Source of the DNA: Alphaproteobacteria bacterium
Lineage (GTDB): Bacteria; Pseudomonadota; Alphaproteobacteria; Micavibrionales; UBA2020
Length of the DNA stretch: 64,000 bases
Direction of reading: 5' to 3'
Assembly (NCBI GenBank): GCA_041287865.1
Contig: JBGGMV010000028.1
Location: 100,964-164,963 of the forward strand
Shown in pieces: positions 54,539 to 63,999 of this stretch. Each line of letters begins with the position of its first letter. Position 1 is the first letter of the stretch. Both the position numbers and the translations under genes were made by a program. The notes under the pieces are model-generated. The model was not told the origin of the DNA and did not search any database. It worked only from the letters and a program-made list of their open reading frames with translations.

Positions 54539-57500
54539 TTATGTTTTCGCGGGTGGCGTGCCCGTGCCGCCGGCGGGCGGCGGGGCTGCCGCGGCGGCGG
54601 GTGCCGCGGGCGGAAGGGCCGGAGCCGGTTTTGGCTTGGGGATCTCGATATCCTCGATCTTCGCCTTGGTGAGCGCGATCAGTTCTTCGCAGATCTTTTC
54701 GGTCACGGCGCCGACGTTGGCTTCTTCGGCTTTGCCGCGTTCGGAAAGCTCGGCCACGCGGCGTTTCAGTTCGTTACGCGCGGAGCCGCCCGGGAAGTTC
54801 GCGCCCAGCAGGCGGCGGGCGGTGGATGCGCCGAGTCGCGTGTAGAGGCGGTTACGGATGGCGACGTCCTCGACCGTGGTCGAGAAGGCCCAAAGCTCAA
54901 GCGGGCCCAGCGTGTTGATCAAGTGCTGTTCGTATTTGCCGTCGACGGTGCCGAGGACGAGCAGCGCGGGTGCGCCGCCGGCTTTCGGGCCGGTCAGTTT
55001 GTGGCGGATGATCCAGCGGGCGGTATCGGTCAGACCGAACCGTTTCTGGGTGTTGTCGACCGCGCCGTCGGAGATGGCGGTACCGAGAACCCAGACGCCC
55101 GTTGCCAAGTCGACCATGTCGTCGTCGAAGTCGTCCAGCATCTGGGAGGCAAGGATGATCTGAATCCCGCGCTTACGGCCCTCGCGGACGTCACGGATAA
55201 TCTGGTGACGCACCGATTTGGTGCGCGAGGTGCGGTGGAATTCGTCGTAGCAAAGGCGTTTCGGCGTTTCCGAGAATTCGCGCAGGCGCTTTTCGTGATA
55301 GACGCGGTATTTCGGCTGCATCTGCGAGAGCGCTTCCTCGTTAATCCACCAGGGCGTGACAAGCGCGTGGCGCGCCAGCATGTACATGATGGCCGTCTGG
55401 CGGTCCGACGCGGCGTCGCCGGCGGGGCAGACGTCGGCCAGGTCGAGCGCGCAGACCCGCGTTTCGGCAAGCGAGAATTTCGTCACCGACGATAGAATCG
55501 GGAATTCGCGAACCGATGATGTGATCATACGCTCGAAGGCGTGAATGACGCCCTCGGAAGATGCGCCGATCGAGGTTTCTTCCAGCAGGTTTTTAATCTG
55601 CGGGCGGCGGGCGGCGGCAACCGAGTCGCCCAGCGTCGGCATCGCGTAACGCTGCGCGAGCGCGGCTTCATACGTCGCACCCTTGTCGAACAGAAGATCC
55701 ACCACGTCCCACCAGTAGGCGGAGGGCGGCAGCGCGAGCTCGAACTTGCGGATCGCTTCGTCGATCGCGGGTTCGATACGCGGCAGATAGGGGCGCGGTT
55801 CGGCGTTCGACATCTTGTCGTCGCGCCAGCGGAACATTTCGTCGACCACCATGCCCGACAGCTGGGCGATACCGTCGTAGGGTTCGGCCTGGCCGGGCGG
55901 CGTGCAGAGCAGCGTGAGAAGCTCGTTCAGGAACGAACGCTCGGAGATCTGCGGATAGCGCATGCCCAGTTTGGTGTCGAACGGGTTAATGGCGAACTGG
56001 TTGTTCATCTGCAGGCGGAACGAGGTCACGTCGGAGCGGCGGTTTGCGGGCAGAGCGTCCTTCAGCAGCGAGACAAGGCCGGCCGATGACGGGCCGATGT
56101 CGATGACCGCGATGAAGGGCAGCTGCGACACACCCTGCGTCAGGCAGGTGCCGAGGTTGAGCGTGTTCATCAAGACGGATTTACCGCCGCCGGGCTGGGC
56201 GAAGACAAGGTCGAACCATGTCGTGGTGACGTTGGTACCCGTCTGGTAGGGCCAGACGCGGCCGTCGGGCGTACGGAACAAAATCGAGCCCTTATCGAAG
56301 GGCGACGACGCGCGCTGCCAGGGCATCAGCTTCATCACTTCATAAAGCGGGCAGACCGCCGGCGGGGCGGTGGAGGCGCAATGGATGCCGAGCGCGGAGG
56401 ACATGACCTGTTCCAGCGGATCGCCGGAGATGTGCGAGACCTGCGCATAGCCCCAGGATTCAGCCGACTGGGTCAGCGCGGAAAGACGGTCTTCCATCAA
56501 TTCCATGTTGCCCTTGGGCGCCCAGGTGCAGAAGGAAATACGCATCTTGACGACAGGCATGGAGCGCGCGACTTCGGTCAGCGCCTCAAGCGCGTCTTTC
56601 ACAAGTTTATTGTCGGCGTTGGTGACGGCGAAGATGGAGGACAGGAAGGCCTGCATGGCCATGCCCTGAATGCCGCCGCCTTCCAGCAGGAAGGAAATGC
56701 GGAAGGGACAGTTGGCCTCCGACATACGCGCCAGAAACGCGGGGAAGGGCAGCGGATCGGTCGGACCCAGCACCATGTCGACGCCGCCCCAGAGATATTT
56801 GCCCATTTCGACCACGTGGTCGTTGATGACGCGGGCGCCCGACATGATGATCTGCTGGCGGAGCGTCGGCCAGAGAATTTCCGACATGTCGCGCTTGTTT
56901 TCGGGTGCGCGCACGGGGATTTTGTCGCCGGGCAGGAAGGCGCGCCAGTTGCTGTCGGGGTTATGCTGCAAAATGTTCGCGCGGATGGTGGCGAGCGCGT
57001 CGTGCACTTCCATCTCGGCGCACTGGATGCCCATTTCCTTCAGCGAAACGGAGGTCGCGACGACGAAGGATTTGTGGCGGGTGCGCAGGCCCTCGATGCC
57101 GGCGTAAGGGTATTGCGCGTCGTCGGCCTTGACCCATTTTTTCTTGCGCGCGCGTTCCGCTTCGCGGGCGAAGTCGGATTTCGACAGCACCGCGGGGCGC
57201 GTCCAGAGCACGAAGTAAATTTCTTCCCAGGCGATATAGCGCGCAAGGTTTTTCGCGCGCTCGACGAAGATGTCCTCGATCTCGAGGCCGACGTTCTTGG
57301 CGGCGGTATAGTTGGGGCGCAGCAGTTTCTTCAGCTCTTCGCCGATGCGTTCGGGGTTGCGGCTGAAATACACCTGCATGGCGTGGCCGGGGCGGTCGAA
57401 GCGGGCGCCCAGCTTCACGACGCAGTCGTCGAGAATTTTCTTGTATTCAAGGTCGCCGATGATCTGGCGCGCGCCGTCGATGCGGAGCAGCGTGACAAGG

Positions 57501-57619
57501 GAGCCGTCTTCGGAGGCAAGCGTGGTTTCGTCGTCGGCGGTTTCCAGGCGGATGAAGCTTTCCACCGGAATGCGCAGCAGCCTGACAACCGGCCGGAGAA
57601 TATTGTCGAATAAGCCCAT
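54539..57619 (-). CDS. icmB: Dot/Icm type IVB secretion ATPase IcmB/DotO (VirB4-like)
   Basis: 1026 aa; Walker A AQPGGGKS; FIAVIDIGPSS; INPFDT; CYDEFHR; position after icmJ. Confidence 0.93.
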   Translation of the reverse strand: MGLFDNILRPVVRLLRIPVESFIRLETADDETTLASEDGSLVTLLRIDGARQIIGDLEYKKILDDCVVKLGARFDRPGHAMQVYFSRNPERIGEELKKLLRPNYTAAKNVGLEIEDIFVERAKNLARYIAWEEIYFVLWTRPAVLSKSDFAREAERARKKKWVKADDAQYPYAGIEGLRTRHKSFVVATSVSLKEMGIQCAEMEVHDALATIRANILQHNPDSNWRAFLPGDKIPVRAPENKRDMSEILWPTLRQQIIMSGARVINDHVVEMGKYLWGGVDMVLGPTDPLPFPAFLARMSEANCPFRISFLLEGGGIQGMAMQAFLSSIFAVTNADNKLVKDALEALTEVARSMPVVKMRISFCTWAPKGNMELMEDRLSALTQSAESWGYAQVSHISGDPLEQVMSSALGIHCASTAPPAVCPLYEVMKLMPWQRASSPFDKGSILFRTPDGRVWPYQTGTNVTTTWFDLVFAQPGGGKSVLMNTLNLGTCLTQGVSQLPFIAVIDIGPSSAGLVSLLKDALPANRRSDVTSFRLQMNNQFAINPFDTKLGMRYPQISERSFLNELLTLLCTPPGQAEPYDGIAQLSGMVVDEMFRWRDDKMSNAEPRPYLPRIEPAIDEAIRKFELALPPSAYWWDVVDLLFDKGATYEAALAQRYAMPTLGDSVAAARRPQIKNLLEETSIGASSEGVIHAFERMITSSVREFPILSSVTKFSLAETRVCALDLADVCPAGDAASDRQTAIMYMLARHALVTPWWINEEALSQMQPKYRVYHEKRLREFSETPKRLCYDEFHRTSRTKSVRHQIIRDVREGRKRGIQIILASQMLDDFDDDMVDLATGVWVLGTAISDGAVDNTQKRFGLTDTARWIIRHKLTGPKAGGAPALLVLGTVDGKYEQHLINTLGPLELWAFSTTVEDVAIRNRLYTRLGASTARRLLGANFPGGSARNELKRRVAELSERGKAEEANVGAVTEKICEELIALTKAKIEDIEIPKPKPAPALPPAAPAAAAAPPPAGGTGTPPAKT

Positions 57620-63481: not shown

Positions 63482-63999
63482 GGTTTCGTCACCTCGTCAA
63501 TCGCGGCAATGCGGGCCTTGACCATCCGGCCTTCGTCGGAGAGCAGCACGACCGGGGTATTGCCCAGCGCGTAGACCGTCGTCCCGTCGGAGGAGGAAAC
63601 GCTCGCATCCCAGGCGGGGGAGAGCAGCGTCAGCGGCGTGCGCAGGTAAACGCGTCCGGAAAGCTTGTAGGCCGTGGTGCGCGTATCGACGCCCTCCACC
63701 GTCAGCTTCTCGGCGTTCTGCGGCGGCGTGCCGTCGAGCACGCCCACCATTTGTTCGTCCTTGCCGGCAACCGTTTTCAGGCCGCCGTATTCGATGATCG
63801 GCGTCTTGGCGAGCGGGCCCGGTTTCGGGATGCGCAGGTCAAGGCGGTAATGCACCCAGTCGATGCCGGTGGTCAGGCGCATCGTCACGGGCGTGATCAT
63901 GTCGACGAAGCGGATCGAGATGTTGCCGACGCCGTGCGCGGTCTGCGGCACGATGCGCAGGATGTTGCCGCCCGATTCAGGCGCCTGGATCAGGAAGGG
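63478..63999 (-). CDS. icmK: Dot/Icm IcmK/DotH outer-membrane core protein (5' truncated)
   Basis: GNISIRF..PVTMRL..VHYRLDLRIPKPGP, VYLRTPLTLLSPAW, VYALGNTPVVLLSDEG; ATGA overlap with icmE. Confidence 0.88.
   Translation of the reverse strand, partial: PFLIQAPESGGNILRIVPQTAHGVGNISIRFVDMITPVTMRLTTGIDWVHYRLDLRIPKPGPLAKTPIIEYGGLKTVAGKDEQMVGVLDGTPPQNAEKLTVEGVDTRTTAYKLSGRVYLRTPLTLLSPAWDASVSSSDGTTVYALGNTPVVLLSDEGRMVKARIAAIDEVTKP

Follow-up and report, generated by a model that had tools for sequence, protein, structure and literature searches.

A chromosomal Dot/Icm-type secretion system retained across the Micavibrionales as a candidate machine for attacking other cells

A 64,000-nucleotide stretch (the window; C28:100964-164963) of a metagenome-assembled genome (MAG) from the alphaproteobacterial order Micavibrionales ends in a block of icm genes, and our analysis indicates that this block is probably the core of a complete, chromosomal and non-conjugative Dot/Icm-type machine, a type IVB secretion system (T4BSS) of the mating-pair-formation class MPF-I that has been inherited vertically and injects protein. 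The genome (G000; 3.6 Mb in 136 contigs, 59% GC, 96.6% complete) encodes further parts of the machine outside the window, and the system occurs throughout the order, including in cultured strains of the epibiotic predator Micavibrio aeruginosavorus. The original prediction, made from the letters of the window, had read the block as a domesticated effector-delivery machine, and this reading gains support from the presence of the essential genes, the absence of relaxases of three families, and the separation of IcmB from its conjugative relative TraU. That proteins are the translocated cargo is likely, judging from homology to the Legionella machine.

Gene content of the machine

Open reading frames (ORFs) and codon-model gene calls trained on the genome itself agree on seven genes, icmK-icmE-icmG-icmC-icmD-icmJ-icmB, all on the minus strand and in the place first assigned to them (positions are those of the window unless a contig is named). 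IcmB/DotO, a VirB4-class ATPase of 1026 aa (54539..57619), matches no Pfam, NCBIfam or PDB model in profile and PDB sequence searches; its homologues, 57-95% identical, bear the name IcmB at NCBI and JGI, its Walker A (AQPGGGKS) and Walker B motifs are intact, and the Walker motifs are likewise intact in all three ATPases of the system. IcmJ/DotN, a coupling-complex subunit (57878..58627), matches NF038221 at 3e-26 and the DotN structures in PDB entries 5x1h and 6sz9 at 3e-19. IcmE/DotG, the core channel protein of VirB10/TrbI type (62105..63481), matches NF033900 at 1.5e-38, which beats the IncI TraO model at 8e-24, and Pfam TrbI at 2.4e-11. IcmK/DotH (63478..64000, PF12293 at 7.4e-45) is present in the window as its C-terminal part, position 63999 being a mere window edge, and its complete ORF of 387 aa extends to window-equivalent position 64641; beyond it lie two icmL/dotI genes at window-equivalent 64841-65494 and 65509-66408 (NF038072 at 9e-36 and 1.5e-52).

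The other three members are named with less certainty. The IcmG/DotF-like protein of 518 aa (60446..62002) matches NF038218 at 2.6e-5 over its C-terminal 67 residues only and is identified mostly by position; it has no PDB match by sequence, and JGI attaches the label IcmG to a 133-aa member of a 90%-identity cluster that also holds the DotF-like counterpart of M. aeruginosavorus ARL-13. The IcmC/DotE (TraQ)-like membrane protein (59091..60035) matches the NF033883 TraQ model at 4.5e-7 and DUF6750 at 7.7e-5, both under the curated cut-offs. The IcmD/DotP-like small membrane protein of 127 aa (58646..59029) is recognised by position, size, signal peptide and the topology of its hydrophobic segments only, and M. 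aeruginosavorus has a 132-aa gene at the equivalent position. All ORFs of the system are full length and free of internal stops.

As had been claimed, the genes follow the order of Legionella region II (L-K-E-G-C-D-J-B). The traM-traU region of IncI1 has an identical order, so gene order cannot tell effector-delivering from conjugative systems. Codon usage is host-like, again as first described, with codon log-odds of the T4BSS genes between the 7th and 100th percentile of the genome and GC of 0.58-0.63 against 0.59 genome-wide. The further claim that the block is embedded among core genes stands in part: its direct neighbours are ankyrin-repeat and DUF6782 genes, whereas housekeeping genes (acs, hemD, an aminotransferase, an amidase and ypfJ) lie 7-40 kb off within the window.

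The original prediction had proposed a search for the other parts of the machine, and whole-genome family searches recovered dotA, dotB, dotC, dotD, dotL, dotM and icmT but not IcmS. Locus A, ~107 kb from the window block on the same contig (C28:37225-49463, minus strand), holds in transcription order a DsbG-like gene, a lytic transglycosylase gene, dotD, dotC, dotB, icmT, a TcpQ-domain gene and four IcmX-like paralogues. Against family profiles DotD scores 7e-32 and IcmT 8e-27; DotC matches PDB 6x62 at 1e-35 and Pfam T4SS_TraI at 7e-70, and DotB matches TIGR02524 at 6e-117 versus 3e-70 for the plasmid protein TraJ. Locus C (C66:117413-122128) comprises dotM, a gene for a 177-aa membrane protein, dotL and a gene for a 113-aa two-helix membrane protein, followed by an ankyrin gene. 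DotM is matched at 1.8e-48, with DotM_C at 6e-44 and PDB chain 6sz9_B, and DotL matches 6sz9_A at 8e-142 over residues 3-606. At locus D, dotA stands alone (C130:13238-16345; TIGR04346 at 6.5e-62, 210 bits against a cut-off of 100), flanked on one side by thrC, pyrD, tipF and a HAD hydrolase gene and on the other by an ABC transporter.

Within the envelope-spanning core set, DotC, DotD, DotH and DotG are thus all matched, and DotF only weakly (2.6e-5). At the level of profiles, Dot/Icm models outscore plasmid models for DotB, IcmE, IcmL, DotM, DotD and IcmJ; several parts also match the IncI models TraO, TraQ, TrbC and TraJ. Public annotation at NCBI and JGI already names these genes.

Distribution, phylogeny and the cultured predators

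Our order-wide sample consisted of 151 genomes of the same GTDB order, from 8 families and 54 genera. IcmB is single-copy in 150 of the 151, the lone genome without it being 78% complete, and 60 of 61 order genomes encode DotA. Over ~1000 residues the identity of IcmB steps with kinship, from 83-95% within the genus through 72-82% within the family to 57-70% in other families. Because the system is single-copy and retained across the whole order, the word "domesticated" in the original prediction is well chosen, and the machine appears, from its sequence relationships, to have been inherited vertically from the common ancestor of the Micavibrionales. The contig-level matches to the IcmB block that bear names are MAGs labelled Micavibrio sp., Alphaproteobacteria or Bdellovibrionales.

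A FastTree phylogeny was built from 164 IcmB-like proteins (the query with 12 members of its order, 146 cluster representatives at 50% identity and 5 plasmid or megaplasmid proteins, 3 of them from MOBP conjugative plasmids), with the MOBP TraU clade as outgroup. The IcmB proteins of the order form one fully supported clade, and TraU of the IncI1, IncL/M and Serratia MOBP plasmids falls into another that is likewise fully supported, with 26-30% identity to IcmB (26% for IncI1 TraU); the grouping with conjugative TraU against which the original prediction had asked IcmB to be checked is not seen. The sister representatives of the order's IcmB are anonymous metagenome proteins, all singletons. 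The closest replicon-borne IcmB in PLSDB, at 44% identity, lies on the 1.26-Mb megaplasmid of Methylorubrum extorquens AM1 (NC_012811.1:466852-469782; L111), whose typing as MPF_I and non-mobilizable makes it a further type IVB locus of an alphaproteobacterium that comes without a relaxase.

The same icm block is found in three closed genomes that belong to a single genus and include M. aeruginosavorus ARL-13 and EPB, so obligate epibiotic predators grown on bacterial prey only keep the system. The IcmJ counterpart of ARL-13 is AEP10725.1 (MICA_2423), letter for letter, and the IcmB entries are AEP10723.1, named icmB, in ARL-13 and AGH99155.1 in EPB. The ARL-13 genome paper claimed no evidence of a type III or type IV system (PMC3189940). 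In the accessible part of its RNA-seq table, icmO (GMV_383) has expression values (GEI, the measure used there) of 4.3 and 3.5 in the attack and attachment phases, its two neighbour genes have 2.3/3.7 and 1.7/3.0, and many housekeeping genes are near 0 in attack phase, leucyl-tRNA synthetase for instance at 0.1/3.5 (PMC3189940, Additional file 4). The statement in that paper's text is at odds with the icmO entry in this part of its own table and with the GenBank name of AEP10723.1 (PMC3189940). A single sentence of Needham et al. 2022 counts "seven Micavibrionales" among marine genomes with pT4SSi (PMC9418006); beyond it the papers searched contain no link between Micavibrio or Micavibrionales and Dot/Icm genes, and a 2025 review on contact-dependent predation does not tie Micavibrio to a type IV system.

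The coupling complex and candidate substrates

DotL is the only coupling protein in the genome, where no VirD4 (PF02534) was found and the sole TraG-D_C match is DotL itself. The C-terminal ~250 residues of DotL (about 600-858; C66:121020-121790; L017:13015-13791) contain four repeats of the form P-[LVF]-S-W-x-[DE]-V-I-G, set in a variable, low-complexity linker rich in Ala and Pro and kept in all 13 same-genus DotL proteins. Elsewhere, four copies occur in one genome of the second ankyrin-rich family and one copy each in ARL-13 and one other family, with weak variants only in two further genomes. These repeats may be docking sites. The 113-aa protein encoded after dotL was considered as an IcmS/IcmW-type chaperone and rejected, being a two-helix membrane protein. 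At the DotM positions that we take to be the arginines binding the Glu-rich signal in Legionella, the alignment reads D, R and K, to which we attach no weight.

A basic C-terminal tag (V-x-V-x-x-x-P-L-K-L-K) marks one set of candidate substrates. An end-anchored regular expression missed most cases, as 1-17 residues follow the motif, and a hidden Markov model (HMM) of the 19-residue motif was used instead, with a threshold of at least 8 bits and a background expectation taken from internal segments. It matched 93 C-termini versus 1.3 expected, the motif in most cases stopping 1-10 residues short of the protein's end. A signal-peptide-like N-terminus is seen in only 3 of the 93 tag proteins but in 725 of the 3186 others (23%; p = 3.5e-7), and contig C28, with its two T4BSS loci, holds 21 of the 93 genes (odds ratio 4.6, p = 2e-7). 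Since DotL is the sole coupling protein, the tail, if it is a type IV signal, must use this machine, and it is plausible from these sequence features that the ~93 tagged Sec-less proteins are substrates. In G000 and its three closest relatives (G093, G119 and G089), 41, 30, 19 and 18 tags are matched at E <= 0.1; these four genomes are one another's closest relatives, and one evolutionary event is therefore indicated. The same four are the largest of the genus (3.6-4.1 Mb), with about twice the ankyrin candidates of their congeners (355-483 versus ~200). As the machine occurs throughout the order and the tag in one subclade only, the tag is not the machine's general signal, nor does the machine need it; it is at most a lineage-specific substrate class. 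The 113-aa and 177-aa neighbours of dotL were also considered as an explanation of the tag and rejected, because both are present in all genomes of the genus, tag-bearing and tag-free alike.

Ankyrin-repeat proteins are the second set. A first look gave 483 candidates here and 150-500 per genome in the family of G000 and one other, and mostly 0-13, with up to 29 in one genome, in the family of the cultured Micavibrio. Three such genes adjoin icmB on the plus strand (49893-50786, 51212-53338 and 53346-54308), two of them matching Ank at 3e-26 to 3e-27 and the middle one Ank_2 at 0.0017, a weak match. One of the three proteins ends in a basic tag (...VSVRRPLVLK...) and two in ...KFKLK or ...KFRLK. 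Three more ankyrin-repeat genes lie upstream of the DsbG-like gene of locus A on the same strand, and eight tag-bearing genes (HMM at least 8 bits) occupy the minus strand of the window over 1614..24749, with starts at 1614, 2447, 4192, 9915, 10881, 22676, 23272 and 23985.

A putative metallopeptidase of family DUF6782 (PF20573) is encoded at 48432..49493 on the minus strand, with a paralogue at C28:167753-168814 on the plus strand (9.7e-25 and 6.4e-21). The pair brackets the icmB-icmL block together with its three adjoining ankyrin genes.

IcmX-like paralogues and DotA copies

Four tandem genes for secreted proteins of ~450 aa (C28:37225-42825, minus strand; L016:1226-6826) lie downstream of dotD-dotC-dotB-icmT and the TcpQ-domain gene. 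The proteins are 23-28% identical to each other, with conserved cysteines, and by sequence they match nothing in Pfam, NCBIfam or PDB, including with a family profile searched against PDB and NCBIfam sequences. A first AlphaFold2 model from a 4-sequence alignment (predicted local distance difference test, pLDDT, 38) was discarded; the model from a 62-sequence alignment reached pLDDT 80.5, and its only meaningful fold match in the PDB was the Legionella DotA-IcmX protochannel 9ngy (E 6.5e-3, probability 1.00, template-modelling score 0.31-0.33), the next match having E 3.1. This predicted fold lends modest support to the four paralogues being IcmX-like. In three families of the order, each genome sampled encodes 3-8 such proteins, and in several of these genomes their genes lie within ~10 kb of icmB. 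In many order genomes DotA is present as three or four tandem paralogues (for example G032 C1:107011-120206 and G056 C4:110323-123451), versus one here. The multiplied DotA and IcmX-like genes suggest alternative channel tips.

Points against and rival explanations

Several observations weigh against a protein-injecting Dot/Icm machine of the kind proposed. No PF12608 (IcmS) match at E <= 0.1 was found in the genome, in searches that did not extend to IcmW and LvgA; neither IcmQ/R nor DotK was identified; and the DotL tail past residue 606 does not align to the tail by which L. pneumophila DotL binds the adaptors IcmS, IcmW and LvgA. The assignments of IcmG/DotF and IcmC are weak, and that of IcmD, with no family match, is weak as well. 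The tag is basic and so unlike the acidic or hydrophobic Legionella signal; among the 42 genomes of the family of G000 it is abundant in the four above only, with 1-5 matches in four others and none in other genomes of the genus, and M. aeruginosavorus has one weak match per strain (E 2.69 in ARL-13 and E 0.5 in EPB, in a search that allowed E <= 10). Finally, named Legionella and Coxiella IcmB proteins were left out of the tree, and the relaxase search described below covered three families.

The rival that survives best is an intact machine without a large effector set, one that would serve attachment, uptake from the attached cell, or the export of a few proteins or of DNA, with the tagged proteins leaving by another route such as a type I system; we consider this unlikely. 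Uptake from the attached cell has reportedly been proposed for the T4SS (type IV secretion system) of epibiotic Saccharibacteria, and C-terminal signals also serve type I systems. The very different distributions of tag and machine count in favour of such a reading, as does the failure to find an IcmS-type adaptor, and 55 of the 151 order genomes, several of 1.3-1.6 Mb among them, have no Ank_2 match, the two M. aeruginosavorus type strains having 2-4. The T4SS of the epibiont Southlakia, too, is essential for growth on its host according to a review (PMC12857230). On the other hand, the full DotL-DotM-DotN complex is kept and the ATPase motifs are intact. In known systems it is this complex that selects export substrates. 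DotL being the sole coupling protein, the Sec-less character of the tag proteins and their enrichment on the T4BSS contig also speak against this rival, and the tag tails, judged by eye, are without the RTX character of type I substrates.

A protein-injecting machine must also be set against the possibility that the block is the mating-pair-formation part of an IncI-type plasmid or integrative and conjugative element (ICE) that moves DNA between bacteria. The order of the block equals that of IncI1 traM-traU, and parts of the system match TraO, TraQ, TrbC and TraJ models; in a MAG of 136 contigs a relaxase could be unassembled, and mobA/L genes occur on islands of ARL-13 (PMC3189940). In our searches of the genome, however, no relaxase of PF03432, PF08751 or PF03389 (MOBP, MOBQ and MOBF) was found, MOBH, MOBV, MOBC and MOBT falling outside the search, and the relaxase check proposed in the original prediction comes out in its favour within that scope. 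For the three families sought there is accordingly no associated relaxase, which is how TXSScan delimits pT4SSi. Of the three tyrosine recombinases encoded in the genome, not one lies on C28, C66 or C130, so the claim that no integrase accompanies the cluster also holds, and no relaxase, integrase or element boundary could be tied to the loci. No tRNA was found in the window or in four of the five flanking loci scanned. A tRNA-Thr gene (C66:117037-117111; L017:9038-9112, minus) lies ~300 bp upstream of dotM, with no integrase or repeat seen beside it.

What marks an IncI-type system, a NikB-type MOBP relaxase and a plasmid or ICE location, is lacking here: there is no PF03432 match, no VirD4 and no integrase or tRNA boundary, and the T4BSS genes are split over four loci among chromosomal housekeeping genes. 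The single-copy presence across the order with identity that tracks taxonomy, the separate TraU clade at 26-30% identity, and the preference of DotB and IcmE for Dot/Icm models point the same way, and we regard conjugation as very improbable. That the system is a decaying, non-working remnant of an ancient element, for which one could cite its scattered parts, the barely recognisable DotF, IcmC and IcmD, and the failure to identify DotK and IcmS (in a search that passed over IcmW), is hardly credible given full-length ORFs, intact ATPase motifs, IcmB at 57-95% identity in 150 of 151 genomes, and transcription of the ARL-13 dotL counterpart in the accessible part of the published table.

Proposed mechanism and target

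If the block and its companion loci work as their Legionella homologues do, then DotC, DotD, DotH, DotG and DotF would form the envelope-spanning core, and DotI with its paralogue, IcmT and the small proteins IcmC and IcmD would form the inner-membrane base. DotO and DotB would energise the machine, and DotA with the IcmX-like proteins would provide the central channel. DotL-DotM-DotN, as the cell's only coupling complex, would pick cytoplasmic proteins for export, and the chosen proteins would be driven in one step into an attached cell. On the gene features described above, the substrates probably include many ankyrin-repeat proteins together with the ~93 tagged proteins that lack signal peptides.

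Who receives these proteins is a more finely balanced matter. We hold bacterial prey to be an evenly poised proposition, favoured because the machine is order-wide and the cultured members are predators; a eukaryotic host is somewhat less probable and is favoured because of the ankyrin load of the family to which G000 belongs; both together, or some other target, would be improbable. A bolder version of the protein-injecting machine can be put forward only tentatively and is doubtful as a whole: it would be the ancestral attack organ of the order and the first known case of a type IVB system directed against bacterial prey, and the ~100 tagged Sec-less proteins of the subclade would be recruited by the acidic P-L-S-W-x-D-V-I-G repeats of DotL, replacing IcmS/IcmW.

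Comparison with known systems and implications

The system is most readily compared with Dot/Icm of the Legionellales, with which it shares DotA, B, C, D, F, G, H, I, L, M, N and O, IcmC, IcmD, IcmT and probably IcmX, as well as the icmL-K-E-G-C-D-J-B order and the adjacency of dotD, dotC and dotB. Both are chromosomal, lie at several loci without a relaxase, and have ankyrin-repeat genes nearby. The Micavibrionales system differs in its host, an order of Alphaproteobacteria in which the cultured members are predators of bacteria; in the lack of a detectable IcmS and an unrelated DotL tail with one to four repeats; in its arrays of 3-8 IcmX-like genes, with 3-4 tandem copies of DotA in many relatives; and in a candidate tag that is basic, not acidic. 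The Tra/Trb (MPF-I) systems of IncI1 (R64-type) and IncL/M plasmids have homologous parts in equal order, and the IcmT/TraK, TraQ, TraO and TrbC models match here, but in the Micavibrionales there is neither a NikB-type MOBP relaxase nor a mobile element, the system is kept vertically across the order, and IcmB shares only 26-30% identity with TraU, from whose clade it stands apart. The MPF-I locus of M. extorquens AM1 is likewise alphaproteobacterial and non-mobilizable, with 44% IcmB identity, but it sits on a 1.26-Mb megaplasmid and in a different IcmB clade. If the prey are bacterial, then the X-T4SS of Xanthomonas and Lysobacter and the T4SS of Saccharibacteria, which act by contact on or against bacteria, would be functional analogues, but theirs are type IVA or Gram-positive-type systems with other substrates (for example those with XVIPCD domains). 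We know of no type IVB system shown to target bacteria.

It is not known how Micavibrio and other epibiotic predators kill their prey and drain it. IcmB in 150 of 151 genomes, DotA in 60 of 61, the full parts list assembled here and the core block in cultured strains together make a concrete and genetically testable attack-machine candidate, and on these genomic grounds we regard the machine as a strong candidate for the attack of Micavibrionales on other cells. With it, the range of Dot/Icm-type effector systems reaches well beyond the Legionellales, and the differing DotL tail, the multiplied IcmX and the subclade's tag family could show how type IVB substrate recognition evolves. What these bacteria carry is a type IVB system that has been domesticated, in a lineage and with a lifestyle for which such systems are essentially unstudied.

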